Shown here piece by piece: positions 48,089 to 64,000 of a stretch of DNA of 64,000 bases (position 1 is its first letter; every line of letters begins with the position of its first letter). The notes under the pieces are model-generated. The model ran no database searches, was not told the DNA's origin, and saw only the letters and a list, made by a program, of their open reading frames with translations. Position numbers and translations under genes: made by a program. This DNA comes from an uncultured Chloroflexia bacterium (GTDB lineage: Bacteria > Chloroflexota > Limnocylindria > Limnocylindrales > CSP1-4), in the NCBI GenBank assembly GCA_963849405.1, contig CAWKHG010000007.1:3243-67242 (forward strand), in the 5' to 3' direction.

Positions 48089-48168
48089 GCGGTCAGTGTG
48101 CCGACCGGCGTCGGCCGCGGCAAAGGGCCCGCGGCGTCAGGCGGTCGGCGCCTCCGGATCGGGGGTGG

Positions 48169-49095
48169 TCAGGCGCTCTTGCGGCGGCGGGCGGGTCGCG
48201 CTTCGGGCTCTGCCTCGGCCTCGGCTTCGGCGGCCTTCTTGGAGCGAGCCTTGGTCCCGGCAGCCTTGGCCGCGCGGGCGTCGCTGACCGAGACCGGCGT
48301 GTCCGTGCGCGACTTCTTCGCCGCGTTGACGCTCGCCTCGAGCGCCGCCATGAGGTCGACGAGATTGCCGCCGGTGGCCTGTGGCGTGGCCACTTCCTTG
48401 ACCTCGTGGCCGGCGACCTTCTCTTCGATGACCGCCATGAGCGCCTCGCGGTACTCGTCGTGGTACGCCGACGCGTCGAACTCACCGGTCATCGCGGCGA
48501 CGAGCTGCTCGGCCATCTTCTTCTCGGCCGGCTTGAACTCCTGGTCCGCGGCCGGCAGGTCGAGCTCGCCGGTGGCCCGGATCTCGTCGGGCCAGTGGAG
48601 CGTCGTCAGGAGCATCGTGTCCTCGAACGGATCGAGGGCGGCGAGTGCCTCGCGATCCTTGATCACGACCTTGCAGATCGCCGTGAGCCCCTGCTCGCCG
48701 AGGACCGTCTTGAGCAGGCTGAACGCCTTGTGGCCGACCTTGTCGGGCTCGAGGTAGTAGGCGCTCTTGACGAACCGGATCGGGCCCTCGTCGCGGGTCG
48801 CCTTCGTGAACTGCTCGATCTCGATGCTGCGGACGGTCTTGAGCGGGACGCGCTCGAGGTCCTCGTCGGTCACGACGACGTACTCGCCCGGGGCGTACTC
48901 GAAGCCGCGGACGGTGTCGCTGCGGCTGATGACCTCGTCGTCGACCGGGCAGAAGGTCTTCATCTGGATCCGCGAGAGGTCCTTCTCGTGGAGCATGTTG
49001 AAGCTGATGCCCTTGGAATCGGTCGCCAGGTAGAGCTTCACCGGGATGGTGACGAGCCCGAACTGGATCGCCCCTTTCCACATCGCGCGCGCCAT
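48169..49095 (-). CDS. ku: NHEJ DNA-end-binding protein Ku
   Basis: WKGAIQFGLVTIPVKLY, YHDEYREAL, NLVDLMAALEAS and a basic C-terminal tail. Confidence 0.95.
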   Translation of the reverse strand: MARAMWKGAIQFGLVTIPVKLYLATDSKGISFNMLHEKDLSRIQMKTFCPVDDEVISRSDTVRGFEYAPGEYVVVTDEDLERVPLKTVRSIEIEQFTKATRDEGPIRFVKSAYYLEPDKVGHKAFSLLKTVLGEQGLTAICKVVIKDREALAALDPFEDTMLLTTLHWPDEIRATGELDLPAADQEFKPAEKKMAEQLVAAMTGEFDASAYHDEYREALMAVIEEKVAGHEVKEVATPQATGGNLVDLMAALEASVNAAKKSRTDTPVSVSDARAAKAAGTKARSKKAAEAEAEAEPEARPARRRKSA

Positions 49096-49314: not shown

Positions 49315-50148
49315 CTACGACCCAGATCGGTTCCGTGTCGTGTCATCTAACGGCCGGGCAGGTGGTAGGTGCATCGAACCGGTTGGCGCGAGCTCGCCCG
49401 AGCCGATTCCGTGCTCGATTGGTGACGTGGTGGGCCGGCGGATGCGCTTCGGCGCTGACACCGCAAGTCGTGCACCTTCCCGGTGGGTAGGTGACACGAA
49501 GACGATCCCGGCGAGTGATCCGGTCGGCCGCTGCAGCCACTCGCGAACTCGGCTACCCCTCGCCGGGAGGGTGGCGTCAAGTACGGCAGCGTGGCGGGCG
49601 ACCGCGCGCCGCGGCGTCGAGTCAGTTGGGAGGACCACGATTCGGCTCACGACATCGGCTCGCCAGCCTTGGGCCTCACGACAGATCGCCGGAGCAAGTC
49701 GCACCTTCTCGTCGAGCTTGCGAAGCATTGCCTCCACCGATGTCAGCTCCGTCTTGACCTCGACGACGAGCAGCGACCGCGCCGCGGAGTGCCAGCCAAC
49801 CAGGTCGATCGAACCTCGCTCGCCGTATCGCGAGTAGGAGAGCTCGGCGAGGGGAAGCCATCCGCACGACTTCAACAGCTTGAGGGCCTGGCCGACCAAT
49901 ACGGCGTGGCGCTCGTCGAGCATGCGATCGAGCGCCCCTCCGCGCCAGCGGACTTCAAGATCCAGGCTTGCATCCAGTGCCGCGAAGACGCGCCGAACCC
50001 GTGACAGGCTCATTGCCGCGAATTGCCCACGCTCGCAGTCCGAGACGAAGGTCTGGCTTACGTGAGCCGCAGAAGCCAAGTCGTCCTGCCGCCAATGGCG
50101 TCGCTGACGCAGGCCACGGAGCGCCGCCCCAACCCGAGGATCATTCAC
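49315..50148 (-). CDS. XRE-family HTH fused to a PD-(D/E)xK restriction-endonuclease-like domain
   Basis: LRQRRHWRQDDLASAAHVSQTFVSDCERG (HTH); GSIDLVGWH…LLVVEVKT (nuclease core). Confidence 0.75.
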   Translation of the reverse strand: MNDPRVGAALRGLRQRRHWRQDDLASAAHVSQTFVSDCERGQFAAMSLSRVRRVFAALDASLDLEVRWRGGALDRMLDERHAVLVGQALKLLKSCGWLPLAELSYSRYGERGSIDLVGWHSAARSLLVVEVKTELTSVEAMLRKLDEKVRLAPAICREAQGWRADVVSRIVVLPTDSTPRRAVARHAAVLDATLPARGSRVREWLQRPTGSLAGIVFVSPTHREGARLAVSAPKRIRRPTTSPIEHGIGSGELAPTGSMHLPPARPLDDTTRNRSGS

Positions 50149-50283: not shown

Positions 50284-51555
50284 TCAGTGGGCGAGACGGA
50301 GCTCCGTCTCCGCTTCGACGACACGGGCCAGGATGTTCGAGCGGAGGAGGTCGAGGCTGCTCCAGACCGCCTTCGTCGTGTTGGTGACCGACGTGAGCTG
50401 GCTCTTGAGCGTCGAGATGAGGTCGAGCTGCTCGCGGATGCCGGCCAGGGCCGCTGACAGGGCCGCCGCGTCGATCTCGACGTCGTGCTCGAGGAGCGAG
50501 GCCACGGCCACGAGGCGCGCGAGCCGCACGGCCGCCTCGAGCGTCGACGCCTCGGGCGCTGCGGGGTCGATGACGCAGTAGACGTCGCCGGCCCGCATGT
50601 CGAAGGGCGCGATGCCCGTCGGAGCGTGGGCCGGCGTGAACACCACCAGCCCGACGGCCGCACAGCGGTTGGTCTTGGCCTCGCGGAGCTCGTCGCGGAT
50701 CGCCCGGAGGGACATGGTCCGGTCCTTGGCCTCGACGACGATCTTGAGGTCCGCGCCGCGTGCCAGGCCGTCGTTGACGGTCAGGACGAAGTCGCCCTTC
50801 TTGCTCTTGATGACGTCGCCGGTCTCCCCGCCGGTCCGATCCAGCAGGTCGCCGTTGGCCCGGGCGAGGTCGCCGAGCATGGCCTCGAGCACGTCCTCGA
50901 AGTCGCCGCCCTTTGCGGTGGACCGAGCACGCTCCGAAGCGCGGGCCGCGGCGGCCGCCTCGATCGCCGTGAGACGGTCGTTGAGCTTCGCGAACCCCGC
51001 GCTGATCTCCTCACGGAACTGGTACATGGGAGAGCCGAGCCGCGTCGGGTCGATGAGGCGGGCGAGCTTGGATGCGTCGCCGTCGAAGTACGTGCCGAGG
51101 AGCTGGCCGATGCGCCCGATCGCGCTGTCGCGCTTGGTCTCGTCGAACAGGTCCGCCACGAACACCCGAAGCTGACCGCGATCGCCGAGGAACTTCTCGA
51201 GCGTGCGGGGCAGGCGGCCATCGCCGTCCGCGAAGTTCGTCCGGAGCGTCTGCTCGAGCGCGGTGGCCGCACGCTCGTTGGTCGCCTGGCTCTGCTGGAG
51301 GAGCGCGGCGAACTCGCGCCGGACCACGTCCACGTTCACGGTGACGCCCGCGTCCTGCAGGGCCACCAGTCCGATCTTGAGCGCGCGCTCAACAAGGGTC
51401 GCGCGCTCCTCCATCGGTCGCTCGGCGACGAACGCCGCGAGCGCCGGGTCGAGGAGAGTCAGGCGGTCGACGAGGATCCGGTCACCCTCGGTCCGGACGA
51501 TCGTCGCCGGCAGCACGGCCGGCGTCGGGAGCGAGACGATGTTGCGGGCTTCCAT
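50284..51555 (-). CDS. Coiled-coil protein with a PD-(D/E)xK nuclease-like core (RmuC/DUF2130-like)
   Basis: KGGDFE…KKGDFV…IVVEAKDR, flanked by long helical regions. Confidence 0.65.
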   Translation of the reverse strand: MEARNIVSLPTPAVLPATIVRTEGDRILVDRLTLLDPALAAFVAERPMEERATLVERALKIGLVALQDAGVTVNVDVVRREFAALLQQSQATNERAATALEQTLRTNFADGDGRLPRTLEKFLGDRGQLRVFVADLFDETKRDSAIGRIGQLLGTYFDGDASKLARLIDPTRLGSPMYQFREEISAGFAKLNDRLTAIEAAAAARASERARSTAKGGDFEDVLEAMLGDLARANGDLLDRTGGETGDVIKSKKGDFVLTVNDGLARGADLKIVVEAKDRTMSLRAIRDELREAKTNRCAAVGLVVFTPAHAPTGIAPFDMRAGDVYCVIDPAAPEASTLEAAVRLARLVAVASLLEHDVEIDAAALSAALAGIREQLDLISTLKSQLTSVTNTTKAVWSSLDLLRSNILARVVEAETELRLAH

Positions 51556-51656: not shown

Positions 51657-52499
51657 TCAGCTCCGCCGGACCGTCGCTTCGATGAGGCCGTGGGGCTCGC
51701 GCGTCGAGATGAAGACCAGACCCGGGTTGTCGAGATGGAACGGGGCCAGGTCGACGAGCCAGTGATGGAGGTTCGGCATCGCCATCGAGATCTCCGCGAC
51801 TTCGGCGTGGCGCTCCAGGATCGCCCGTCCGATGATCCAGATCGACGCCTGGACCGACGGGCTGTCGTGCTCCGCGAACACCTCGAGGAACGTCGCGCGC
51901 ACGCCCTCGAAGAGCGCATCGTGATCGACGTCCGGTGAGGCGTACCGCCAGCGAGCGCTGACCTGGGTGGCCATGAGCCGGTCGGCCGCCTCGGGCAGCG
52001 TCGTGTATTCGTCGCGCGGGAAGCCCGTGAACGATGACTTCGTGGTCTTCATGACCGCGAGGTCCTCGATGCCGGCCTCGATCGTCACGCCGTCGCGTGC
52101 CGCCACGACCGACGCGACCCTGGTCCACGATCCATCACGCGCGAAGGCATCAGCCGCGGGCGCCTGGCCGGCCAGCGCGATCGGCGTCCAGCGGTGCTCG
52201 CGGAGGGCGATCGTCGCCCGGTCGACCTGAGGGAACGCCGCGAAGTGCTCGGCGAGCGTGCGTCCGAACGCCTCGATCGAGCCGTCGAACCGGTCCCGCG
52301 CGAACGCATAGACCGTGTTCTTCATCGTGTCGGTCGCGATCACGTCGGTGTTGTCGCCCGCGACGTACGAGTCTTCGAACGCGCCGGCGAGGGTCACGCC
52401 CACCGTGACGTCCCGGACCGCGTGGCCGGCAGCATCGCGAACGACGCGGACGAGCTGGATCGCCTGCTTGCCGTAGCGGTTGTCACCGAGCTCGATCAC
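51657..52499 (-). CDS. pucL: Factor-independent urate oxidase (uricase)
   Basis: YGK, ATDTMKNTVY, KTTKSSFTGF, SPSVQ, MPNLH and PHGLIEAT; GGAGG SD before GTG 52499. Confidence 0.93.
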   Translation of the reverse strand: MIELGDNRYGKQAIQLVRVVRDAAGHAVRDVTVGVTLAGAFEDSYVAGDNTDVIATDTMKNTVYAFARDRFDGSIEAFGRTLAEHFAAFPQVDRATIALREHRWTPIALAGQAPAADAFARDGSWTRVASVVAARDGVTIEAGIEDLAVMKTTKSSFTGFPRDEYTTLPEAADRLMATQVSARWRYASPDVDHDALFEGVRATFLEVFAEHDSPSVQASIWIIGRAILERHAEVAEISMAMPNLHHWLVDLAPFHLDNPGLVFISTREPHGLIEATVRRS

Positions 52500-53076
52500 G
52501 AGTGCCTCCAGCGTTGCCGGCAAGCTTGGCGTATCGGTCGGCCGCGATGTCGACGACGGCGTCGAGCGCCCGCCCGAGCTCGTTCTCCGGGTCTCCCTCG
52601 AGCGCCGCGAGCATGCCGGGCAGCAGCGCCTCGCGCGGGCGCCCAGCGACGAACACGCAATACCGGTGGCCGAAGCGGGCCTCGTACGCGGCGTTGAGCC
52701 GGTCGAGCTCGTCGGCCAGGCGAGCGCGCTCCATCGCGGATTCGGCCGCCCTGGCGTCGGCCGCCTCCTGGTCGTAGCCCTGCTCGCGGAACGAGAGGGC
52801 GGACACCGACGCCGGGGGCGCGCCCAGCCGCGGGTGCGCGTCGATGAGCTCGTGCTGCTCGTCGCGAGTCATCGCGTGCGCGATCGTGCGCGCGGCCGCG
52901 AACAGCGCCTCCGGCGAGCCGAACGGCCGGCCAGCGGCCAGCCGCCCAAGGAACCGTGGCGCGCCCTCGAACAGGGGCGCGACCGCCGCAGTGAACGCCG
53001 AGGTCGGGCAGGTGTCGAGCGCCTCGATGTCCATCGCCGGCGCATCCGCTGAGTCGCCAGCCCGTGGCGCGGCCAC
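52483..53076 (-). CDS. uraD: OHCU decarboxylase
   Basis: LFEGAP, AHPRLG, SFREQ and LNAAYEARFGHRYCVFVAGR. Confidence 0.88.
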   Translation of the reverse strand: MAAPRAGDSADAPAMDIEALDTCPTSAFTAAVAPLFEGAPRFLGRLAAGRPFGSPEALFAAARTIAHAMTRDEQHELIDAHPRLGAPPASVSALSFREQGYDQEAADARAAESAMERARLADELDRLNAAYEARFGHRYCVFVAGRPREALLPGMLAALEGDPENELGRALDAVVDIAADRYAKLAGNAGGTRDRAR

Positions 53077-53412
53077 TCAGGTCCCCCGGTACGTGCTCAT
53101 CGAGTACGGCGCGAGCAGGAGCGGCACGTGATAGCTGCGAGCCGTGTCGGTGATCTCGAAGTCCACGGCCATCGTCTTGAAGAAGACCGGCGCGCCGTCC
53201 GGCACGTCGAAGCGGAGGCGGTACACGCCGGCGATGAGGGGCCGGCCCATGAGGTCGCGCACGCGCCCGTCGTCGTCGGTCAGGCTCTCGCTGACCCGGA
53301 TCGGCCGTCCGTCGAGCTCGAGCTTGAACAGCGTCACCTTGAGGCCCGCTGCGGGCCGGCCACGTCCGGTGTCGAGGACGTGGGTCGAGATCGTGGGCGC
53401 GCTGTCGACCAT
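53077..53412 (-). CDS. uraH: 5-hydroxyisourate hydrolase (transthyretin-like)
   Basis: [22 protein letters not shown] and [18 protein letters not shown]. Confidence 0.95.
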
Positions 53413-53465
53413 ATGGCCACTGTAGCCGACCCTTGGCCGCCCATCCGGTCCGGTATGCTCCGGGC

Positions 53466-53918
53466 GTGGGTGACCTCACGATCCGTGTCGGCGATCTGGC
53501 CTTCAAGGCGCGCTGGGAAGCTGCTGCGCCGCAGACGATCGAGGCCATCCGACGCATGCTCCCCATCAAGAGCAAGCTCATCCACTGCCGCTGGAGCGGC
53601 GAGTCGACGTGGATCCCGTACGGGGAGTTCCGCCCGGGCATCGACTACGAGAACCACACCTCCCACCCCGCCCCCGGCCAGCTCGCCCTCTACCCGGGCG
53701 GCATCAGCGAGTGCGAGATCTTCTTTCCGTACGGGGCGTGCATGACGAGCTCCAAGGTCGGTCAGCTTGCGGCCAACCACTTCGCGACGATCGTGCCGGA
53801 CGACGGATGGGCCGACCGGTTGCGCGAGGTCGGACGGCGGTGCCTCTGGGAAGGGGCCCAGGCGATCGTCATCGAGGAGGCGCGCCCGCGCCGTCCCATC
53901 CCGAACCCGGCCACGTAG
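53466..53918 (+). CDS. DUF3830 family protein
   Basis: APQT…IHCRWSGE…[11 protein letters not shown]…[15 protein letters not shown]…GQLAANHF. Confidence 0.85.
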
Positions 53919-53919
53919 G

Positions 53920-54081
53920 GTGGCGATCGCGCTCGCCGTGATCCTCATCGTCGCCCTCGTATTCACGATCCGCGTCGCGCTGTTCCGGCGGGCGGCGATC
54001 GGCGCCCGGGCGCGGACGGCGATCGACGGCCCGCTCGCGCCGGTGCGCCGGATCGCCCGACGGCGCCGCTCCGGGCGCTGA
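53920..54081 (+). CDS. Possible 53-aa membrane microprotein
   Basis: GTG follows the DUF3830 stop by 1 nt; hydrophobic N-terminus and Arg-rich tail; fills the gap to the next gene. Confidence 0.45.
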   Translation: MAIALAVILIVALVFTIRVALFRRAAIGARARTAIDGPLAPVRRIARRRRSGR

Positions 54082-54097
54082 CCTCGCCCGTGCCCGC

Positions 54098-55495
54098 ATG
54101 ACCGACCTGCTCGTCCGGGGCGGGACGGTCGTGACCGCCGGTGGCTCGCGCCGGGCCGACGTCCTGGTCTCCGATGGCCGGATCGAGGCGCTCCTCGAGC
54201 CGGACGAGGGCGAGCGGGCGGCGACCTCCGCGCGCGACGTCGAGGACGCCACGGGCCTGCTCATCCTGCCCGGCGTCATCGACGTCCACACCCACACCCG
54301 GGTCGCCTCGGACGACGAGCCGGACCGGTTCTTCCAGGACACCGTGGCCGCCGCGTTCGGCGGCACCACGACGCTCTTCGCGTTCAACAACCCGAAGACC
54401 GGATCGTCCGACGCCGCGGAGCGTTCGCTCGTCACTGGCATGCACGAGTGGCGGGCGGTGACGGCCGGCGATGCCGCGATCGATGTCGCGCCGAGCCTGT
54501 CGATGAGCGGCCGGGCCGACGACCCGATCGCCGAGATCCCGGCCATCGTCGACGGAGGCGTTCCCACCGCCAAAGCCTTCATGGTCTACGACTTCCGATT
54601 GGACGACCGGCGGCTGTTCGACGCGATGGGCGCGATGGGCCGGGCCGGCGGGATGCTCGAGGTCCACTGCGAGGACCCGGTCCTCATCGATGCCGGCGTT
54701 TCCGCGGCGCTCGCCCGGGGAGACACCCGGCCGCGCGACCACGCCGTCTCCCGGACCCCTGCGGCGGAGGCCGTGGCCACCAATCGGGCGCTGGCGTTCG
54801 CGCAGGCGGCCGATGCCCCGATCCACATCGTCCACCTGTCCTCGGCGCTGGCCCTCAGCCAGGTTCGGCGGGCGAAGAAGGCGGGCGTTCGGGTCTCGGT
54901 CGAGACGTGTCCCCACTACCTGACGTTCACGTCCGATCGGTACGACGGCACGGACGAGGAGGCGATCCGCTACGTCATCTCGCCACCGTTGCGGACGACC
55001 TGGGATCGTGAGGCGCTGTGGGCCGGGCTGGCGGACGGGACGCTCGACCTCGTCGCCACCGACCACGTCCCGGATCGACTCGCCGTGGAGAAGCGGGTGC
55101 CGGCGCCGCCGTTCCCGGAGATCAGCAACGGCGCACCGGGCGTGGAGACGCTGCTCGCCATCGTGTACGGCGAGGGCGTCGCGCGCGGCAGGATCACGGT
55201 GGAGCGGATGGTCGACCTGCTGTCGACGACGCCGGCGCGGCGATTCGGCGTGACGCGCAAGGGGGCGATCGAGCCCGGCCTCGATGCCGATCTCGTCCTC
55301 TTCGACCCCGGCGCCCGACGGACGATCCGGGCCGCCGAGCTCCATCACACGAGCGACTACACCCCCTACGAGGGGCTCGAGGTGGCCGGTGCGGTCCGTT
55401 CGGTGTTCGTCCGCGGCCGGGCGGTCGTGCGCGACGGGCTCTTCGTCGGGCAGCGCGGCTACGGCCGGTTCGTGGAGCGCAGAATCAGCGCCTGA
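54098..55495 (+). CDS. Cyclic amidohydrolase (dihydropyrimidinase/hydantoinase-like; allantoinase role inferred from context)
   Basis: PGVIDVHTH, KAFMVY (carboxylated Lys), VHCED, HIVHLS, ETCPHYL, SPPLR and ATDH. Confidence 0.88.
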   Translation: MTDLLVRGGTVVTAGGSRRADVLVSDGRIEALLEPDEGERAATSARDVEDATGLLILPGVIDVHTHTRVASDDEPDRFFQDTVAAAFGGTTTLFAFNNPKTGSSDAAERSLVTGMHEWRAVTAGDAAIDVAPSLSMSGRADDPIAEIPAIVDGGVPTAKAFMVYDFRLDDRRLFDAMGAMGRAGGMLEVHCEDPVLIDAGVSAALARGDTRPRDHAVSRTPAAEAVATNRALAFAQAADAPIHIVHLSSALALSQVRRAKKAGVRVSVETCPHYLTFTSDRYDGTDEEAIRYVISPPLRTTWDREALWAGLADGTLDLVATDHVPDRLAVEKRVPAPPFPEISNGAPGVETLLAIVYGEGVARGRITVERMVDLLSTTPARRFGVTRKGAIEPGLDADLVLFDPGARRTIRAAELHHTSDYTPYEGLEVAGAVRSVFVRGRAVVRDGLFVGQRGYGRFVERRISA

Positions 55496-55517
55496 CCGAC
55501 CGCCTCGAGGAGCCGCC

Positions 55518-55892
55518 ATGCCGCCCACCGCCAGCCACCCCCAGACCATCGCGTACTACTACCTGATCCGCTGGGGCAACGTGGACGAGTTCATCGAGCT
55601 CTTCGAGCGCAACCACTGGCCGATCCTGCGCGAGCAGCTCGCGGCCGGCCGCTTCACGGACGTCCGCGCCTACGCCCCGCGCTTCCACGGCGACGGCCGG
55701 GCCGACTGGAACTTCCTCGTCACGATCACGTACCGGAACTGGTCGGCCATCCAGGACCACTCGGACGCGGAGATCGCCGCGCGCCTCTACCCGGACCAGA
55801 AGACGTTCGCGGCCGAGGAGGCGCACCGTTTCTCGCTCCTCGAGGCCCACTGGGACGTCCCGCTCGAGGAGCGCGTCCTGCCCGCCGGCTGA
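55518..55892 (+). CDS. Hypothetical 124-aa protein, possibly a dimeric alpha/beta-barrel fold
   Basis: GAGGAG SD; beta-alpha-beta-beta pattern with conserved-looking His/Trp/Glu residues. Confidence 0.7.
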   Translation: MPPTASHPQTIAYYYLIRWGNVDEFIELFERNHWPILREQLAAGRFTDVRAYAPRFHGDGRADWNFLVTITYRNWSAIQDHSDAEIAARLYPDQKTFAAEEAHRFSLLEAHWDVPLEERVLPAG

Positions 55893-55934
55893 GCCGCGGG
55901 TGTGCGATCCGCGCCGTCCATTACCATCGCGGTG

Positions 55935-56615
55935 ATGGACCAGCCAGAACGATCCGGGGCGCCGACGGCGTCCGATCCGGCGATGGGCGAGCGGTACCTC
56001 GTGCTCGCCGACATCACCGGCTACACCGGCTTCATGGCCGGCGTCGAGCAGGAACACGCGGTCGACTTCAGCGGGGGCATCCCCGTCGGGTATTCCGTGC
56101 TCGGGGCGCTCCTGAACGCCGTCATCGAGGGTCTCGCGCCCGACTTCGAGGTCGTCAAGCTCGAGGGCGACGCGGTCTTCGCCGCCGCATCGGCGTCCAG
56201 CCTCGATGGCCAGGGCGAGCGGGTCGCCGGCCGACTCGGGACGATGTACCGATCCTTCACCGATGCGCGCACCAATGCGATGCCGGCCAGCGATCACATC
56301 TGCATCGCCTGCCCCGCCGTGGCCCACCTCGATCTCAAGGCGGTGCTCCATCGCGGGACGGCCGTTCGCCAGACGGTCGGGTCCGGCAGCGACCTGCTCG
56401 GCCCGGCGGTGACGGTCGCCCATCGGCTGCTCAAGAACACGATCCGGGAGCGGATCGGCACCCGTCCCTACCTGTTCGTGACCGACGCCGCGGCGACCGC
56501 GCTCGGCCTGTCGGAGGCCGGCCTCGCCCACGGTGAGTCGTATGCGGATGCCGGCGAGGTGCACGGCCGGATCCTCGACCTCGGTCAGCCGGTCGGCGGA
56601 CCCGCGTTCGCCTGA
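55935..56615 (+). CDS. DUF2652 family (class III nucleotidyl-cyclase-like fold)
   Basis: LADITGYT, KLEGDAV, C.C..C-like CIAC, LKAVLHRG and VTVAHRLLKN. Confidence 0.8.
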   Translation: MDQPERSGAPTASDPAMGERYLVLADITGYTGFMAGVEQEHAVDFSGGIPVGYSVLGALLNAVIEGLAPDFEVVKLEGDAVFAAASASSLDGQGERVAGRLGTMYRSFTDARTNAMPASDHICIACPAVAHLDLKAVLHRGTAVRQTVGSGSDLLGPAVTVAHRLLKNTIRERIGTRPYLFVTDAAATALGLSEAGLAHGESYADAGEVHGRILDLGQPVGGPAFA

Positions 56616-56644
56616 GCCTGCGCAGCCCGAGCGGCCGCGGCGCC

Positions 56645-58213
56645 TCAGTCGAGGAGGCGGTAGGCGCCCAGGGTCAGGAACTCCGCGAAGTCGTCGGACA
56701 GGACGAGGTCGTCGAGGAGCGTCGCAGCCTCCGCCAGGCGGCCCGCAGAGGGACCACCCAGCGCGGCGAGCTCCTCGTCGCGGATCGTCGCGTACAGCTC
56801 CGGCGTGATCGCCCGGCCGTCGTCGAGGCGGTCGCCACGGGCACGCCAGAGCCAGAGCTGGGAACGGGCGATCTCGGCCGTGGCCGCGTCTTCCATGAGG
56901 TTGTTCAGGGCGGCTGCGCCGTTGCCGCGCAACCAGGAGTCGAGGTACGCGAGCGCGACCGACACGTTCGCCCGCAGCCCCGCCTCGGTGCGTTTGCCGC
57001 CGGCGATCCGCAGGTCGAGCAGCTCGGCGGGCGAGCCCTGGGCCTCCCCGACCCGGCGACCCTTCTGGTGCGGCGCCGACCCCAGCACGGCCGTGAAGAC
57101 CTCGTCGGCGAGGGGCACGAGATCGGGATGGGCGACCCACGTCCCGTCGAACCCGTCCGACGATTCGCGCTCCTTGTCCTCGCGGACGCGGGCCATCGCG
57201 ACCGCGTTCACTTCGGCGTCCCGGCGCGACGGGATGAATGCCGCCATCCCGCCGATCGCGTGGGCGCCGCGCCGATGGCAGGTCCGGACGAGTCGCTCCG
57301 TGTACGAGCGCATGAACGGGACCGTCATCGTCAGCTGGGCGCGGTCCGGGAGGTCCACCTCGGGCCGAGCGCGCAGGTTCTTGATGAGGCTGAACAGGTA
57401 GTCCCAGCGCCCGGCGTTGAGCCCGGCGGAGTGGTCGCGCAGCTCCCACAGGATCTCGTCCATCTGGAAGGCGGCCGGGATCGTCTCGATGAGGACGGTC
57501 GCGCGGACCGATCCCTGCCGGACGCCCAGGGCCTCCTGCGCCGCGACGAACACGTCGTTCCAGAGCCGTGCCTCGAGATGATGCTCGAGCTTGGGCAGGT
57601 ACATGTACGGTCCGCTGCCGTGAGACAGGGTCTCAGTCGCGTTGTGGAAGAACCACAGCCCGAAGTCCACCAGGCTGGCACTCAGCGGGGAGCCGTCGAG
57701 GAGCAGGTGGCGCTCGTCGAGGTGCCAGCCGCGTGGCCGGACGAGGAGCGTGGCGGTCCTGTCGGCGAGGCGGTACGCCTTTCCGGACGCCGGGTCGTCG
57801 AACGTCAGCTCGCGACGGACCGCCGCCCGGAGCGCCAGCTGGCCACCCACGACGTTGGCCCAGGTCGGCGAGAGGGCATCCTCCAGGTCGGCCATGAAGA
57901 CGCGGGCGCCCGAATTGAGGGCGTTGATCATCATCTTCGGCTCGGCCGGGCCGGTGATCTCGACCCGCCGGTCGTCCAGGTCGGCCGGGGCAGCGGCCAC
58001 GGACCAGTCGGACGAGCGGATCTCCGCCGTCTCCGGGAGAAGGTCGAGCGTCCCGCCCGCCGCCAACGCCGCCCGGCGTTCCGCGCGGGCAGCGAGGAGC
58101 GTGCGACGCCTGGGCTCGAACGCTCGCGCGAGGCCCTCGACGAAGGCGAGCGCTTCGGGGGTCAGGATCTCGTCGGCGCCCGCAACGGGCGCGCCGGCCA
58201 CCTGGATCGTCAC
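56645..58213 (-). CDS. aceB: Malate synthase A
   Basis: [48 protein letters not shown] and [16 protein letters not shown]. Confidence 0.95.
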
Positions 58214-59118
58214 CAGCCACCTGCCTCGCGGATGAGTCGATGGAGGACCCGCGCCGCGACGGCACGACGGTACTCCGCCGTAGAGCGGACGTCCTCGATC
58301 GGCGAGATCTCGCCGGAGAGCGTGTCGGCCGCCCGGTCCGCCGTCTCGGGCGTGGGACGGGAACCCTCGAGGAGGCGTTCGGTCGCGCGGGCACGGATCG
58401 GCGTCGCCGCCACCGAACCGAGAGCCAGCCGCACCTCGCGCCAGACTCGCGGCCCGAGGCGCGTTGCGCCGGCCTCGTCCCGCCAGGACAGGGCCATGAC
58501 GACCTTGCTGATGGCCTGTGCTCGGCGTGTCCCCACCTTGTGATACCGGGTCTCACGGCCGGGCGCGAGAGGCAACCGGATCCGCAGGACGAGCTCGTCG
58601 GGGGCGAGCGCCGTCTTCCGGTAGGCGGGCCAGAACCGCTCGGCCGGGACCGACCGTTCGCCGCGCGGCCCGCCCACATCGATCATCGCGTCGGTCGCGA
58701 GGAGGACCGGCAGCGAGTCGCCGGCCGGCGATGCATTCGCGATGTTGCCGCCGAGCGTCGCCCGGTTCTGGATCTGCGCCGCGCCGATGGTCGCGGCCGC
58801 GTCGACGAGCGCCGGCACGAGCTCGCGGCACAGGACGGACTGGCGGATCTCCGCGAACGTCGTGAGGGCCCCGAGGACGAGCGAGCCCGGATCGTCCGAG
58901 CCGTCGTCGGCCGGCTGGACGGCGATGCCGCGGAGCTCGTCGAGATGCCACAGGTCGAGGCAGGCCTCGGGCGGCGCGCCGATCTCGCCGGTGATCTGGA
59001 CGAGCAGGTCCGTGGCGCCGGCGACGGGACGGAGCGGTGCCTCGGCGGACGCGTCGGCCAGGAGCCCATAGGCCTCGGCGAGCGTCCGAGGGCTCGAGAC
59101 CGCCGGCTCGACGACCAT
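58210..59118 (-). CDS. Xanthine dehydrogenase-family FAD-binding subunit
   Basis: [41 protein letters not shown] and DVRSTAEYR. Confidence 0.92.
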
Positions 59119-59121
59119 CGC

Positions 59122-59232
59122 TCAGCGCCCCCGGCGACGGAAGACGAGGAAGCTCACGACCACTACGACGATCACGAGGGCCGCCACGACGAGGAGGCTC
59201 TGCGGATCGATGACCGGGATCATCACGTCCAT
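59122..59232 (-). CDS. Possible 36-aa single-pass membrane microprotein inside the xdh operon
   Basis: MDVMIPVIDPQSLLVVAALVIVVVVVSFLVFRRRGR; starts 1 nt after the 2Fe-2S stop and ends 3 nt before the FAD-subunit ATG. Confidence 0.55.
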   Translation of the reverse strand: MDVMIPVIDPQSLLVVAALVIVVVVVSFLVFRRRGR

Positions 59233-59233
59233 C

Positions 59234-59809
59234 TCAGGTTGCCCCCTCGGCAGTTCGGCGGTCCGCGGCGAGCGCGATGGCCTCGACGATCTTGGTGTAC
59301 CCCGTACAGCGACAGAGGTTTCCGGCGATCGCCTCGCGGATCGTGTCCTCGGTCGGCGCGGCGCCGGAGGCGAGGAACGCATGGCCCGCCATAAGCATCC
59401 CGGGCGTGCAGATGCCGCATTGGGCGCCGCCCGTCTCGAGGAACGCGCGTTGCAGGATGTCGAGGTCGTCCAAGGACGGTGGCGCGTCCGTGCGCCGGGC
59501 CGTGCGCCGCGCCACCGCGGCGCCTTCGCTCGGGAGTCTTGCGCCTTCGCTCGGGAGCCCTGCCCGTGCCGGCGCGAGTCCCTCTACCGTCCGGATCTCG
59601 GTGCCATCCACCTGGCAGACCGGGACGAGGCACGAATCGACGATGACGCCGTCGACGAGGACCGAACAGGCCCCGCACTCGCCCTCGCCACAGCCCTCCT
59701 TCGTGCCGGTCAGCCCCAGGTCCTCGCGGAGGACGTCGAGCAGCCGCCGCATCCCGGGCACGTCGAGCTCGGTCGCGGCGCCGTTGACCGTGAAGGCCAG
59801 CGCGCTCAT
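59234..59809 (-). CDS. Xanthine dehydrogenase-family (2Fe-2S) subunit
   Basis: GTKEGCGEGECGACSV, DSCL, QCGICTPG and GNLCRCTGY. Confidence 0.95.
   Translation of the reverse strand: MSALAFTVNGAATELDVPGMRRLLDVLREDLGLTGTKEGCGEGECGACSVLVDGVIVDSCLVPVCQVDGTEIRTVEGLAPARAGLPSEGARLPSEGAAVARRTARRTDAPPSLDDLDILQRAFLETGGAQCGICTPGMLMAGHAFLASGAAPTEDTIREAIAGNLCRCTGYTKIVEAIALAADRRTAEGAT
59520..59557. repeat. 17-bp direct repeat with a 21-bp period, giving an in-frame LPSEGA duplication
   Basis: GCGCCTTCGCTCGGGAG at 59520-36 and 59541-57. Confidence 0.85.
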
Positions 59810-59816
59810 GGCGTGC

Positions 59817-62236
59817 TCACGCGGCACCCGCGCGCGCCGGATCGCCGCCATCGTCCGCGCCGCCGACCGCGTCCAGAGCGCCGAGCGCTTCGAGGATCCG
59901 TTCCGGACTGGCCGGCAGGTCGGGGATCCAGACTCCGACCGCGTCGTGGATCGCGGCCACGACCGCCGGGGCCCCCACGTCCATCGGCAGCTCGCCGACC
60001 CCCTTGGCGCCATGGGGAACGCCGTCGAAGGGCGCCTCGACGAGGATCGTGCTGATCCGCGGCGCGTCGAGCGCGGTCGGGATGATGTACGTCGCGAGCC
60101 GATCGTTCAGGTACCGGCCGTCGGTGAGCTTGATCTCCTCGATCGTCGCGTAGCCGACGGCCTGGAGCGTGCCGCCCTCGACCTGTCCCTCGGCCAGGAT
60201 CGGATGGATGACCCGTCCCACGTCGTCCGCCGCGACGACGCTCCGGACGGCGACCTCGCCGGTATCGAGGTCGACATCCACCTCGGCGACCGCCGCCGCC
60301 CACCCGAAGGCCGGATACGCGTCGCCGGTGTACGTCGCGTCGTCGAACGGGACGCCCGGATACGGCTCGAACTTCTCGTCGATCCGGGTCGCGCCGTGGG
60401 CCTTGGCGTCCGCCTGGTACGTGTCGGCGAACGCGCCACCGGTTCGGGCCTCCACCTCCGCGCGCAGCCGGCGGCTCGCCCCGATCACGAGGCCGCCGAC
60501 GACCATCGCCGTCCGCGATGCCACGGTCGGGCCGGAATCGGGCACGAACGCCGTATCGACCGGCGCGATCTCGACAGCCTCGACGGGCACCCCGAGCTCC
60601 GCGGCAGCCAGCTGGGGGAAGATCGTCTTCGTCCCCTGGCCCATCTCGGTCGATCCGGTCAGGACGACGATCGTGCCCTCGGAGGTGAGCTCGACGGACG
60701 CCACCGACGCGAGGTGGACCTCGCCCGAACCGGTGAACCCGGCGCCGTGCCAGGCAAGCGCGAGCCCGATCCCGTGGGCGCTCCGATGCCGGCCGCCATC
60801 GAACGGGGTGGGCGGGATGAGCCCCGAGCCGGCCCGGTCGGCACGCGCCCGCGCCGTCCGCTCACGCACCCGTTCGTACTCGGACGCCTCCGCCGCGCGC
60901 TCGAGCACCTCCTCGCCGGCCACGCTGTCGAGCAGCACCTGGCCGGTCGGGGTGACGTCGCCCGGCCGGTAGACCCACTTCCGGCGCAGCTCGAGCGGCG
61001 ACATGTCGAGCGCCTCGGCGACGCGGTTCACCTGCATCTCCGCGGCGAACTCCGTCTGCGGCGCGCCGAAGCCACGGAACGCCCCGTTCGGTGGCGTGTT
61101 CGTGGCCACGACCCGCGAGTGGATGCGGACGTTGGGGCACTTGTACGGGCCGCCGGCGTGCAGGGTCCCCCGCGACAGGACGACCGGGCTCAGCGTGCAG
61201 TACGCCCCGCCGTCCATGAGGATCTCGATCTCCTGGGCGATGAGCTCGCCGTCGTTCGTCACGCCACTGCGGTAGCGGACGATCGCCGGATGGCGCTTCG
61301 TCGTCGCGGCGATGTCCTCGTGCCGGTCGTAGATCATCCGGACCGGTCTTTTCGCCGCGCGCGCCAGCAGCGCCGCGTGGATCGCGAGGATCGACGGGTA
61401 CTCCTCCTTGCCGCCGAAGCCACCGCCGGTCTCCGCCTGGACGACCTGGGCGCCGTCGTCGTCGAGCGACAGCGCCCGCTTGAGCGCCCGATGCACGTAG
61501 TACGGGCACTGGAGGCGAGCCGTGGACGGTCACCCCGCCGTCCGCCCGGGGCACCGCGATCATCGCGTTGTTCTCGATGTACAGCTGCTCCTGGTGGCCG
61601 ACCCGGTACTCGCCCTCGATCACGATGTCGGCGGCGGCCATCGCGGCATCGACCTCGCCGCGCTCGATCGCGTACCGCGCGAAGACGTGCTCGCTCTCGA
61701 GCGGGTCGAGGATCGGGGTGCGCTTCTCGGTCCGGGGATGCGAGACGCGACGCGGCCTCGCGCAGGGTCGCCCGGTCGGGTGCCGCGATGAGCGCGAGGG
61801 GCTCGGCATGGTGGCGGATCTCGCCGCCGACCGGGACCAGGATCGGCTGGTCCTCCTGGATGAGGCTCACGATGTTCGGGCCGGGGATGTCGGCCGCCGT
61901 GACGACGACGACCTTGGTCCAGTCGAAGTCCTCGTCGCGATCGAACGCGATCAGTCGCGCGTGGGCATCCGCGCTCCGGATCGTGGCTCCGTACCAGGCG
62001 CCCGGGAAGACGAGGTCGTCGGTGTACAGGGCGACGCCGGTGAGCTTGGCCGGACCCTCGCGGCGCAGCGGGCCGGCCGCGCGGGCACGGCCGGGGACGG
62101 TCGTGCCGCGCGGTACGACAAGGGGCGCTGGATGCGTCGTCGGGGCCGCTGGCGCAACGGGCGTGCGGCCGGCGTCGAAGGCACGCTCAGGAAGGCCGTC
62201 TGACGTCGGACCGGCCGATCCGCTGGGGGTCGTCAC
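59817..62236 (-). CDS. Xanthine dehydrogenase-family molybdopterin-binding subunit; frameshifts near 61.5 and 61.7 kb
   Basis: KLTGVALYTDD, HQEQLYIE, GGGFGGKE, GAFRGFGAPQ, EMGQG, QVEGG and GAKGVGE. Confidence 0.92.
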
Positions 62237-62327: not shown

Positions 62328-62846
62328 TCAATGATCGACCTTGGCCTTGTCGAGCGCCGCGCGTATCTCTACATGGTGGTCGCGCCAGGCATCCCAGACG
62401 GAGGCCGCCCACGCTCGTGCCCGGCTGTCGTGCTCGGCCTGGTCCGCGGCGCCGGCGACATCGAGCAGCGTGAGTTGGCCCGGGCCGTGGGCGCGCTCGA
62501 GGATCGGGTAGTCCGTGCGGCTCGCCAGCACCCGCCGGAGCACGTCCGGGGAGCGGGCAGGCGTCCCGCCACGCTCGAGTACCGCGCACAGGGAGGCAAG
62601 GTGGACGAACACGGACTGGCGGTCCCGGCGATCCGTGCCGTCGCCGGGATGCTGGGCCATGTACGTGTCGACGATGAGGTTGTTCTCGGGCGAGCCGGGG
62701 AAGCGCTGCATCTCGTCGGCCCTGAGGGCACCGAAGGCCGCCCAGCAGCCGGGCGCGCTCGGGACGTAGACGTGCCGCGGGCCGTCGATGTCCGGGACGA
62801 GCGCGCCGCACTGGGGACACGCGACCGCGGGTGCGTCGCTGTGCAT
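62328..62846 (-). CDS. DUF5946-like protein
   Basis: CPQCGA…SAPGCW…VDTYMAQHP…VHLASLC…W...VW..W..H. Confidence 0.7.
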   Translation of the reverse strand: MHSDAPAVACPQCGALVPDIDGPRHVYVPSAPGCWAAFGALRADEMQRFPGSPENNLIVDTYMAQHPGDGTDRRDRQSVFVHLASLCAVLERGGTPARSPDVLRRVLASRTDYPILERAHGPGQLTLLDVAGAADQAEHDSRARAWAASVWDAWRDHHVEIRAALDKAKVDH

Positions 62847-62850
62847 CGGG

Positions 62851-64000
62851 TCAGTCGCGGCCGCGGCGGAGGGCTCGGCCGGGCGGGGCGCCCGTGTGCT
62901 TGCCGCCATCCACGACGAGGGTGCCGTTGACAGCGACGTACTGGATGCCCTCGGGGAACTGGCGCGGCTCCTCGTACGTGGCCAGGGAACGGACCGTCGC
63001 CGGGTCGAACACGACGAGGTCCGCCGCGAGCCCGTCGGCGAGGCGGCCGCGGTCGTCAGGCCCAGGCGGGCGGCCGGGGCGCCGGTCATCTTGTGGACGG
63101 CCGCCTCGAGCCCGAGCCAGCGCTCCTCGCGGACGAGCTGGCCGAGGATGCGCGGGAAGAGCCATACGTCCGCGGGCGACGGCTTGTCGCCGATGAGGAC
63201 GCTGTCCGTGCCCACCATCGACGACCGGGTGGCGATAGGAACTGGCGGATGCCGTCGAGGTGCGGGCCCGGGCGTCACCTGGTTGACCTGGAGGTCCTCC
63301 GCGAGGAGCAGGTCGCAGATCGCGTCGACGGCTCGCGCGCCCGTCGTCGCGCAGGACCTCGCCGAGCGTCCGGCCCTCCCAGGCCCGATGCTCGGGCAGC
63401 GCGAGAGTCGCCCAGCGCGGATCGTCCCAGGCGCCGGCGCCGGCGAACATCGTGCCCCGTGCCTTGCATCTCGTCGCGGATCCGGGCGCGCACCGCCCGA
63501 TCGGCGAGGCGCTCCTTCAGCCGGTCCGGCCCGCCCGCCTGGACCCAGGTCGGCAGCATGATCAGCAGGCGCGTGCTCGACCACTCGTACGGGTAGAGGT
63601 CGAACGTGACGTCGAGGCCCTCGGCGCGGGCGTCGTCGACCAGGGCGAGCATCTGCTCCGGCGGTCCCGGCGAACGTCGCCCGATGGTAGAAGTGGGTGA
63701 TGTGGGCCGGCGCCCCGCTCCGGCGCCCGATCTCGATCGCCTCCCGGAACGGGTCCAGGAACCCGTCGCCCAGCGGGTAGCGGACGTGGGTGTGGTAGAT
63801 CCCGCCGAGTCGGCCGGCCTCCCTGGCGATCGCCGCGAGCTCCTCGGTCGTCGCGTAGGCGCCCGGCGGGTAGTCGAGCCCGGTCGACAGCCCGAACGCC
63901 CCGTCCTCCATCGCCTCGCGGAGCATCGCGCCGCTGGTCCTCGATGGCGCGTTCGTCGGCCGCGCACGTCGTCCCAGCCGAGCGCGGCGATCCGGAGCGG
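62851..64000 (-). CDS. N-acyl-D-amino-acid deacylase family amidohydrolase; 5'-truncated by the window edge and frameshifted
   Basis: GAFGLSTGLDYPPG, YHTHVR, HITHF, FDLYPY, AVHKMT, ADLVVFDP and YVAVNG. Confidence 0.88.

Follow-up and report, generated by a model that had tools for sequence, protein, structure and literature searches.

The window, a stretch of 64,000 nucleotides from a soil Chloroflexota bacterium, carries between positions 51657 and 62236 genes for uricase, OHCU decarboxylase, HIU hydrolase, a DUF3830 protein, a cyclic amidohydrolase, malate synthase A, and a three-subunit xanthine-dehydrogenase-type enzyme (Table 1). Pfam and NCBIfam matches thus bore out the genes listed in an earlier note on this DNA (xdh with three subunits, uricase, uraH, uraD, the cyclic amidohydrolase, and malate synthase). 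The region is best read as an island of Candidatus Limnocylindrales for breaking purines down to malate, in which the lower half of the pathway is non-canonical, and it extends beyond 62236 through a DUF5946 gene to a D-aminoacylase-like amidohydrolase.

Table 1. Features of the island, with positions in the window and the supporting match.
Feature	Position	Strand	Evidence
Factor-independent urate oxidase (uricase)	51657..52523	-	PF01014; TIGR03383 308.7 bits vs cut-off 168.4
OHCU decarboxylase (uraD)	52483..53076	-	PF09349 111.7 bits
5-Hydroxyisourate (HIU) hydrolase (uraH)	53077..53412	-	TIGR02962 98.6 vs cut-off 87.45
DUF3830 protein, ~150 aa, GTG start	53466..53918	+	PF12903 92.9 bits vs cut-off 26
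Possible 53-aa hydrophobic small ORF (uncertain), DUF3830-amidohydrolase spacer	53920..54081	+	Sequence reading
Cyclic amidohydrolase, D-hydantoinase/dihydropyrimidinase type	54098..55495	+	TIGR02033 421 vs cut-off 393
Conserved 122-aa ORF 3' of amidohydrolase	55527..55889	+	tblastn, 77% identity to L039 ORF
DUF2652 gene, insertion	55902..56615	+	PF10851 70.5 bits
Malate synthase A, predicted glyoxylate sink	56645..58213	-	TIGR01344 733 vs cut-off 594.5
Xanthine-dehydrogenase-family FAD subunit	58210..59118	-	PF00941 + PF03450
Xanthine-dehydrogenase-family 2Fe-2S subunit, linker insertion with repeats	59234..59809	-	PF00111 + PF01799
Xanthine-dehydrogenase-family molybdopterin subunit	59817..62236	-	PF01315, PF02738, PF20256
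DUF5946 domain gene	62328..62800	-	PF19371 102 bits
D-aminoacylase-like metallo-amidohydrolase	62854..64000, on to ~64459 past the window	-	Orthologue PF07969

Two of the xanthine dehydrogenase genes were resolved with orthologues from a related locus, L039. Alignment placed the start of the 2Fe-2S subunit at the ATG at 59809, and the intact 763-aa molybdopterin subunit matched by tblastn in three pieces, which puts the gene here in three frames with frameshifts near 61760 and 61510. The 122-aa ORF, which had no match in Pfam or NCBIfam, turned up in just 10 or so of about 70 related loci, the DUF2652 gene had no tblastn match in any of the related loci examined, and the DUF5946 part was matched, among the loci compared, only in one from the same genus (L035). 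The earlier note had passed over both the 122-aa ORF and the DUF2652 gene.

Judged by sequence, the xanthine-dehydrogenase-type enzyme, uricase, HIU hydrolase, and OHCU decarboxylase would together make (S)-allantoin, and malate synthase A would use up glyoxylate. The ring-opening amidohydrolase has D-hydantoinases as its closest solved structures (E ~5e-95). It was also tried as an AllB allantoinase and rejected, as its TIGR03178 score of 279 fell below the cut-off of 358. We infer that this D-hydantoinase-type enzyme is the allantoinase of the island, opening the ring of allantoin to give allantoate.

No allantoicase, AllC, AllE, or AllA had been recognized at the locus earlier, and the same held for the whole genome: family models in a six-frame search found no allantoicase, AllA, or AllC, and tblastn with AllA, AllC, AllD, AllE, FdrA, YlbE, YlbF, and YbcF from E. 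coli K-12 gave no match. Among 37 relatives of the same family, one encodes allantoicase, one (a genome without DUF3830) an AllC-like M20 protein, and none AllA, while AllE never came near its cut-off. All four enzymes are absent from six DUF3830-positive, island-bearing genomes that are at least 90% complete (G002, G004, G005, G015, G019, and G021). Apart from G019, with four, each of these genomes has just two OTCase-fold genes, which argues against a ureidoglycine carbamoyltransferase of the Rubrobacter type. The gap between allantoate and glyoxylate therefore appears to be real and lineage-wide rather than an artefact of assembly, and the families tested for the allantoate, ureidoglycine, and ureidoglycolate steps are encoded neither here nor in near-complete relatives. 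Ureidoglycine and ureidoglycolate also break down spontaneously, so an enzyme is not strictly required for these last steps.

The first candidate for the gap is the DUF3830 protein, on which, or on PF12903, our literature search found nothing. Its earlier description as cyclophilin-like agrees with an AlphaFold model that is a cyclophilin-like barrel (pLDDT 95.6). A Foldseek search with this model gave 3KOP as the best match (E 9e-10), followed by the Pictet-Spenglerases KslB and McbB (~1e-6), enzymes with the same barrel that catalyse amine-carbonyl (iminium) chemistry. A separate profile comparison with 3KOP gave 1.9e-34. Within the small protein (~140-150 aa), E62, G71, and N104 are invariant family-wide, the strictly conserved polar residues are His40, Glu62, Asn63, Thr65, and Asn104, and we identified no motif for a metal or a cofactor.

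The gene was said to diverge from uraH and to head the amidohydrolase unit, and this arrangement, with a 53-nt spacer between the divergent genes here, is kept in all 53 long Limnocylindria loci that we counted, each from a different GTDB species. In each of the 53 loci, uraH occupies the same divergent position, the amidohydrolase directly follows DUF3830, and uraD is present; uricase lies within 9 kb in 49, malate synthase within 9 kb in 45, and the xanthine dehydrogenase FAD subunit is present in 43. Such conservation is far beyond chance. In most relatives, the DUF3830 and amidohydrolase genes abut or overlap, with start/stop overlap in clean assemblies, unlike the spacer seen here, which holds a possible small ORF that had no match in a Pfam search.

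Outside this lineage, DUF3830 is found with other enzymes of the pathway. It lies 10 nt upstream of a PuuE-type allantoinase, in the same operon, in about 13 metagenome loci, and Bradyrhizobium sp. UFLA05-109 has a DUF3830-PuuE-uraD/uraH arrangement adjoining xdh. AllB-type neighbours exceed the allantoinase cut-off in L180 and L208, and in eight loci of other lineages an M20 allantoate amidohydrolase (NF006775, 551-571 bits vs 479) lies near DUF3830, at 0-100 nt in most of them, with no AllE, AllA, or AllD within 8 kb. Because close relatives of DUF3830 stand beside PuuE, AllB types, and M20 amidohydrolases, we tie the protein to allantoin breakdown itself, a connection supported by three unrelated or distant allantoinase types and the M20 enzyme in several phyla. 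Other contexts also occur among relatives of DUF3830, including genuine dihydropyrimidinase-family genes, the AtzD/TrzD ring hydrolase (one clade), clusters of a hydantoinase with an M20 carbamoylase and transporters, methylcitrate genes, and an NRPS cluster, and one close homologue, sharing 87% identity with the Bradyrhizobium type, does not adjoin purine genes.

The earlier proposal that DUF3830 performs a missing ureide step stands as far as its tie to allantoin catabolism; the exact step can only be suggested, and DUF3830 is not the sole candidate. The D-aminoacylase-like gene adjoining xdh, missed earlier, has the same presence/absence profile. Of the 20 relatives with an orthologue, 19 have purine-type DUF3830, as does the genome of the window, and the two mismatches between the profiles are genomes 66-71% complete. 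Although the gene shows at least eight frame switches in this assembly, its protein retains the HxH, His, His, and Asp metal ligands, and the orthologue matches D-aminoacylase 1M7J and N-acyl-D-glutamate deacylase 3GIP with E ~1e-65. Allantoate is an N-carbamoyl amino acid, and for this reason the D-aminoacylase-like enzyme is a better chemical candidate than DUF3830 for its hydrolysis. The two proteins together are the likely replacements for the missing steps.

In the scheme that we favor, the D-aminoacylase-like enzyme would replace AllC, removing one carbamoyl group from allantoate to give ureidoglycine, CO2, and NH3. DUF3830, in this reading a small barrel enzyme that needs no cofactor, would then take over the labile aminal or hemiaminal that results, turning ureidoglycine and/or ureidoglycolate into glyoxylate and freeing NH3 and/or urea; it would use iminium-type acid/base chemistry through the conserved His40, Glu62-Asn63, and Asn104 and so replace AllE and possibly AllA. 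We give the scheme as a whole, a real gap filled by two conserved proteins of unassigned function in which DUF3830 comes in at ring opening or later, a probability of about 0.5. It is quite probable that DUF3830 catalyses a step between allantoin and glyoxylate, while its placement after allantoate deamidation is tentative. Several observations count against the scheme. DUF3830 is partnered most often by an allantoinase or hydantoinase and not by the amidohydrolase expected to make ureidoglycine, which fits a role on allantoin as well, and ureidoglycine is not expected in the dihydropyrimidinase, AtzD/TrzD, methylcitrate, or NRPS contexts. The homologue away from purine genes, the spontaneous decay of both ureides, and the frame switches in the D-aminoacylase-like gene also weigh against it.

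An unlikely alternative is that DUF3830 is a non-homologous racemase or isomerase of allantoin (a 5-substituted hydantoin) feeding a stereospecific ring-opening enzyme, as HpxA does beside HpxB/PuuE in Klebsiella, with the missing steps left to the D-aminoacylase-like amidohydrolase and spontaneous ureidoglycine decay. It would explain why the tightest and most frequent partner is a ring-opening enzyme of whatever fold, why DUF3830 comes first in the operon of the allantoinase, like hpxA before hpxB (PMC13751858), and why it takes the racemase slot in the hydantoinase-carbamoylase-transporter clusters; cyclophilins, moreover, are isomerases. However, an Asp/Glu/hydantoin-racemase-family gene (216 bits) is already present in the PuuE/allantoate amidohydrolase/DUF3830 clusters of L199 and L211, and L130 has two. 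In L182 and L204, DUF3830 accompanies allantoate amidohydrolase with no allantoinase within 8 kb, and the known substrates of AtzD/TrzD are achiral. As uraD already yields pure (S)-allantoin, a racemase would be accessory only, yet DUF3830 is never lost from the island.

It also seems improbable that DUF3830 is an accessory protein, serving for example as a ligand-binding chaperone or a sensor or activating the ring-opening enzyme. The lower pathway would in that case rely on the D-aminoacylase-like hydrolase together with non-enzymatic decay, or on enzymes that cannot yet be recognized. The small size, the lack of an identified metal or cofactor motif, and the heterogeneous contexts of the family would suit such a role, and a partner protein, GlxK, is reported to activate E. 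coli allantoinase (PMC10163214). The partners of DUF3830 are structurally unrelated (amidohydrolase fold, polysaccharide-deacetylase fold, and M20), which argues against a specific protein-protein role; the strictly conserved polar residues and the catalytic relatives KslB and McbB on the same barrel also speak against an accessory protein. Least probable is a reading that the wording of the earlier note allows, in which DUF3830 itself cleaves allantoate as an allantoicase analogue, eliminating urea so that ureidoglycolate and, from it, glyoxylate are formed: the lineage lacks allantoicase, AllC, and ureidoglycine carbamoyltransferase, the gene is coupled to that of the allantoate-making enzyme, an acid/base barrel would suit aminal cleavage, and genomes of the family have a urease-alpha-like gene more often when they are DUF3830-positive than when they are DUF3830-negative (7/13 vs 1/10), but the M20 enzyme at the eight loci already consumes allantoate, G016 has both the island and allantoicase, and the near-complete carriers G001, G004, G005, and G019 lack urease.

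The canonical routes run through AllB-AllC-AllE-AllA/AllD in the E. coli all regulon and PuuE-allantoicase-AllA in the Pseudomonas type. They share with the island xanthine dehydrogenase, uricase, HIU hydrolase, OHCU decarboxylase, allantoin ring opening, and glyoxylate as product, whereas the genome of the island lacks allantoicase, AllC, AllE, AllA, and AllD, its ring opener scores as a D-hydantoinase rather than AllB, and two conserved unassigned genes stand in. For Rubrobacter xylanophilus, too, a genome without any of the known enzymes for allantoate and ureidoglycolate was reported; a ureidoglycine carbamoyltransferase was proposed from its purine cluster, and an uncharacterized gene adjoins its allantoinase (Barba et al., 2013, PMC4016543). 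A third carbamoyltransferase and a carbamate kinase are both lacking here, so the solution is a different one.

Among the individual proteins, 1M7J and 3GIP share the Amidohydro_3 architecture and metal ligands of the D-aminoacylase-like enzyme, which is ~30-35% identical to them (read from the alignment), has Asp in place of the metal-binding Cys96, and sits in a purine island. The structural-genomics protein 3KOP (Arthrobacter sp. FB24) belongs to PF12903 like DUF3830 and shares its predicted cyclophilin-like barrel, but is only ~20% identical, and its subfamily lies in amidase/Amdase-like/aminotransferase rather than purine clusters. KslB and McbB (9NS6, 3X27), the second-best structural match (TM ~0.7 over the whole model), are acid/base enzymes for amine-carbonyl adducts; they are twice as long and their sequence similarity is marginal (profile E 0.43). 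The allantoin racemase HpxA, of the Asp/Glu racemase superfamily, resembles DUF3830 in its operon position beside allantoinase but not in fold, and some allantoin clusters contain an Asp/Glu-racemase-family gene together with DUF3830. The proposed functional equivalents of DUF3830 are the cupin AllE/UGlyAH ((S)-ureidoglycine aminohydrolase) and the ureidoglycolate lyase AllA, which would be analogues of unrelated fold. AllE usually accompanies allantoate amidohydrolase, and at the eight loci it is DUF3830 that does so instead.

Gene calling guided by GC3, together with Pfam and NCBIfam scans, confirmed the genes that an earlier note made from the sequence alone had listed between 51657 and 62236 (see the table). 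DUF3830 and uraH are divergent, as described there, with a spacer of 53 nt. Membership of the xanthine dehydrogenase (XDH) family is certain for the three-subunit enzyme, while xanthine as its substrate is inferred from the genomic context; the best NCBIfam model for an intact orthologue of the Mo subunit is pucD (494 bits against a cut-off of 784). In the 2Fe-2S subunit (59234-59809, minus strand), the linker contains an insertion with a short tandem repeat (GLPSEGAR/LPSEGAA); the orthologue in L039, the related locus from which intact orthologues were taken, lacks this insertion.

Genes of the purine island in the window and its continuation
Feature	Coordinates	Strand	Basis or remark
Uricase	51657-52523	-	Pfam/NCBIfam
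OHCU decarboxylase (uraD)	52483-53076	-	Pfam/NCBIfam
HIU hydrolase (uraH)	53077-53412	-	Pfam/NCBIfam
DUF3830, GTG start	53466-53918	+	PF12903
Cyclic amidohydrolase, 465 aa	54098-55495	+	TIGR02033
Conserved 122-aa ORF	55527-55889		between amidohydrolase and malate synthase
DUF2652 gene			between amidohydrolase and malate synthase; not seen in the loci of relatives that were compared
Malate synthase A	56645-58213	-	Pfam/NCBIfam
XDH-family FAD subunit	58210-59118	-	
XDH-family 2Fe-2S subunit	59234-59809	-	
XDH-family Mo subunit	59817-62236	-	split over three frames
D-aminoacylase-like gene	62854-64000		upstream of xdh Mo subunit; continues to ~64459 on contig C7

The lack of a recognisable allantoicase, AllC, AllE or AllA, which the earlier note had remarked on in the island, held when alc, allC, allE and allA were sought genome-wide by six-frame family searches and tblastn. 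The window's own genome gave no match for allantoicase (PF03561; the search was validated by matches in genomes G016 and G062), none for an M20-type AllC or ureidoglycolate amidohydrolase (TIGR03176/TIGR01879) at E <= 0.01, and none for AllA (PF04115), which was found in 0/37 of the family genomes searched. The best AllE score (TIGR03214) among this genome and its relatives reached 27.6 bits, where the cut-off is 200, and E. coli K-12 AllA, AllC, AllD, AllE, FdrA, YlbE, YlbF and YbcF had no tblastn match in this genome. Allantoicase occurred in one of 36 relatives (G016) and an AllC-like M20 enzyme in one of 36-37 (G018, a genome without DUF3830). No PucG-type class V aminotransferase was seen within the island.

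The assembly has a CheckM completeness of 66%, and its size (3.2 Mb in 8 contigs) is like that of its relatives. Because housekeeping genes also carry frameshifts, with both OTC (C2:328218-328677) and glxK (C5:361562-362651) split, and because of this similarity in size, the low score probably stems from indel errors. Assembly incompleteness was rejected as the cause of the gap on the grounds of size, the use of six-frame searches, and the absence of allantoicase, AllC, AllA and AllE from six island carriers with at least 90% completeness. The gap between allantoate and glyoxylate is thus a property of the lineage.

Rubrobacter, which has uricolysis genes without the known allantoate or ureidoglycolate enzymes, is one published example of a recognised annotation gap, and its proposed ureidoglycine carbamoyltransferase provides the only published alternative route (PMC4016543). 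We excluded this route here since most DUF3830-positive relatives carry only the expected pair of OTCase-fold genes and no third OTCase/ATCase-fold paralogue (G019 has four), and since a YbcF-like carbamate kinase was not found in the window's genome by tblastn. A urease-alpha-like gene was present in this genome (C5:102132-103832) and in 7/13 island carriers against 1/10 non-carriers, and is not universal; the copy here is full-length and divergent (561 bits, below the cut-off of 680), without the classical EGAGGGHAPD and MVCHHL motifs.

A GTDB scan returned a best 80 DUF3830 loci that all belonged to Limnocylindria, 53 of which had full flanks and were counted. The order uraH (minus), DUF3830 (plus), amidohydrolase (plus) was intact in 53/53, which bears out the earlier description of DUF3830 as heading the amidohydrolase unit opposite uraH; where the assembly is clean, the stop codon of DUF3830 overlaps the start codon of the amidohydrolase gene. 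Of these 53 loci, all have uraD within 9 kb of DUF3830, 49 have uricase, 45 malate synthase and 43 the xdh FAD subunit. When the ORFs of the whole neighbourhood were clustered, no further conserved enzyme family emerged close to the island core. Several neighbours were considered as fillers of the gap and rejected: the 122-aa ORF is present in a minority of related loci, DUF2652 in none, and DUF5946, among the compared loci, in this genus only, while a recurring subtilisin-like 780-aa family is unrelated. The 423-aa protein adjoining uricase (50284-51555, minus strand) was also rejected, as it lacks a Pfam or NCBIfam match, shows no enzyme signature and travels with Ku/LigD; it is kept in 39/53 loci, where its place is invariably between the Ku/LigD pair and the genes for purine breakdown. 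This NHEJ pair (45242-49095, minus strand), comprising Ku and a LigD with phosphoesterase, ligase and primase-polymerase domains, flanks the island in most relatives. XRE-type HTH proteins of ~250-277 aa recur inside the island, in the window at 49315-50148 (minus strand); relatives have another copy behind the amidohydrolase (L039 12350-13102). These proteins are candidates for local regulation.

The DUF3830 protein itself matches PF12903 with 92.9 bits (gathering threshold 26) over profile positions 1-139 of 143. A profile built from 40 relatives found 3KOP, the solved structure of this family, at 1.9e-34, and found the Pictet-Spenglerase McbB only marginally, in an alignment that covers the N-terminal third and does not place the catalytic Glu of McbB. 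An AlphaFold2 model from the 40-sequence alignment (pLDDT 95.6) again had 3KOP as its best Foldseek match (E 9e-10, TM 0.69-0.75), followed by the Pictet-Spenglerases KslB and McbB (~1e-6) and then by TM1367 and cyclophilins. The model thus predicts a cyclophilin-like closed beta-barrel with flanking helices, in agreement with the fold named in the earlier note. E62, G71 and N104 are invariant across DUF3830 subfamilies and H40, N63 and T65 nearly so, and the clade containing the window protein shares the motifs H-x-R-W-S-G-E, E-N-x-T-S and S-E-x-E. The family comprises ~836 clusters at 50% identity. Metagenomes yielded >8000 near-identical DUF3830 clusters. A solved structure has been available since 2009; our literature search found no functional data on DUF3830, PF12903 or 3KOP.

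The island's cyclic amidohydrolase, present as the earlier note had it, differs in detail from an AllB-type allantoinase. It falls below the AllB equivalog cut-off (TIGR03178, 279 bits vs 357.85) and the PRK13404 subfamily cut-off (381 vs 647) and narrowly exceeds that for D-hydantoinase/dihydropyrimidinase (TIGR02033, 421 vs 393; 401 for the L039 orthologue). D-hydantoinases are also its closest solved relatives. Genomic context argues for allantoin as the substrate of this predicted D-hydantoinase-type enzyme. A second dihydropyrimidinase-like paralogue in the same genome (C1:46257-47624; 40% identity to the island enzyme) may be the true pyrimidine enzyme.

A second conserved gene of the island lies upstream of the xdh Mo subunit and encodes an Amidohydro_3 protein of ~541 aa, whose kin include D-aminoacylase (1M7J) and the N-acyl-D-glutamate deacylase 3GIP. 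Of the metal and catalytic residues of D-aminoacylase, HxH, His, His and Asp align, and Asp stands in place of the metal-binding Cys96; an orthologue scored 197 against the PRK09061 cut-off of 340. Orthologues with at least 66% identity were found in 20 relatives, 19 of which, like the window genome, have the purine-type DUF3830, always within ~25 kb; 15 family members lack both genes, and the two genomes in which their presence is mismatched are 66% and 71% complete. Compared with a same-genus orthologue, the copy here has at least eight frame switches in 1.6 kb, with well-conserved in-frame segments, against two in the xdh Mo subunit and none in the amidohydrolase, malate synthase, uricase or FAD subunit genes; these switches may reflect long-read indel errors that are unevenly spread, or local pseudogenisation. 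Since allantoate is chemically an N-carbamoyl amino acid, the D-aminoacylase-like enzyme is the candidate that suits the AllC step more naturally. DUF3830, proposed earlier as the filler of the gap, is retained as a candidate, and the AllC step itself would be better fitted by this neighbour.

Outside Limnocylindria, DUF3830 in Bradyrhizobium sp. UFLA05-109 is followed after 2 nt by PuuE and then by a uraD-uraH fusion, in a cluster that adjoins xdh, a guanine-deaminase-like gene and a nucleoside transporter. We also scanned 80 metagenome loci of the window's own DUF3830 clade, 47 of which were at least 6 kb long. PuuE lay within 5 kb in 11 of these 47, mostly starting 10 nt after DUF3830, and an M20 enzyme was near DUF3830 in 8/80 loci, mostly 0-100 nt away, and scored as allantoate amidohydrolase with NF006775 (551-571 bits vs 479). 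An AllB-type allantoinase exceeded its cut-off in two of the 80 loci, genuine dihydropyrimidinase-family genes occurred in six, and AllE, AllA and AllD were absent from all 80. Two loci (L199 and L211) combined an Asp/Glu/hydantoin-racemase gene, PuuE, allantoate amidohydrolase and DUF3830 in one cluster.

Other members of the family lie beside AtzD/TrzD or with a hydantoinase and an M20 carbamoylase, and some have unrelated surroundings. The 3KOP subfamily occurs in amidase, Amdase-like and aminotransferase clusters of actinomycetes and Pendulispora; a conserved version in Actinoalloteichus (L127), Pendulispora (L128) and genome G026 (L021) contains an amidase, DUF3830, two Amdase-like genes, GntR, a class III aminotransferase and an aldehyde dehydrogenase. 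A metagenomic operon (L132, JGI 3300044266) with an AtzD/TrzD ring-opening amidohydrolase, an ABC transporter and a LOG-like gene ends in a DUF3830 gene whose product has 51% identity to the window protein. In GCA_003427375.1 (L218), a protein with 87% identity to the Bradyrhizobium purine type is encoded away from purine genes, with methylcitrate-cycle genes preceding it and a sulfite-oxidase-like gene following.

DUF3830 occurs with allantoate amidohydrolase and a racemase-family gene where AllE is lacking, which would place it after allantoate deamidation. Action on ureidoglycine and/or ureidoglycolate would be the most economical reading of these gene neighbourhoods. Turnover of either compound is aminal/hemiaminal chemistry, akin to the iminium chemistry of DUF3830's structural relatives. 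The earlier note had DUF3830 perform a missing ureide step, an interpretation that is supported in part: the association with ureides stands, and which step it would catalyse we infer from these neighbourhoods. In the proposed route, the D-hydantoinase-type enzyme would convert allantoin to allantoate, the D-aminoacylase-like enzyme allantoate to ureidoglycine, DUF3830 ureidoglycine to glyoxylate, and malate synthase glyoxylate to malate.

DUF3830 may instead be an allantoin racemase. It has no match to PF01177, the HpxA-type Pfam family, and its predicted fold differs, which makes it less likely to be an HpxA and leaves its chance of working like one unchanged; the clusters at L199 and L211, moreover, already contain a racemase-family gene. 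Direct cleavage of allantoate by DUF3830 may also be considered, against which stands its co-occurrence with a true allantoate amidohydrolase. A non-catalytic role as a protein partner is a further, less likely reading; the allantoinases with which DUF3830 is paired differ in fold and are unrelated, which ties it to the metabolite rather than to a partner protein.

The boldest reading, to which we give a probability of roughly 0.3, is that DUF3830 represents a new family of cofactor-independent aminal/hemiaminal lyases or hydrolases with a cyclophilin/Pictet-Spenglerase-type barrel, whose substrate would be ureidoglycine and/or ureidoglycolate and whose product would be glyoxylate. In Limnocylindria, in Proteobacteria of the Bradyrhizobium type and in other phyla, it would take the place of the cupin AllE and perhaps of AllA, and in Limnocylindria a D-aminoacylase-type metallo-amidohydrolase would also stand in for AllC. 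If so, the whole segment from allantoin to glyoxylate would be assembled from non-canonical parts.

Purine breakdown is a major nitrogen and carbon recycling route in soil, where Limnocylindria are very abundant. Finding the function of DUF3830 would close an annotation gap in several phyla, give PF12903 its first activity and extend the cyclophilin-like fold to a reaction type new to it. Since DUF3830 heads a puuE operon in culturable Bradyrhizobium, the question is directly testable. Compared with known systems, the purine island is a variant that rests on an uncharacterised protein family.
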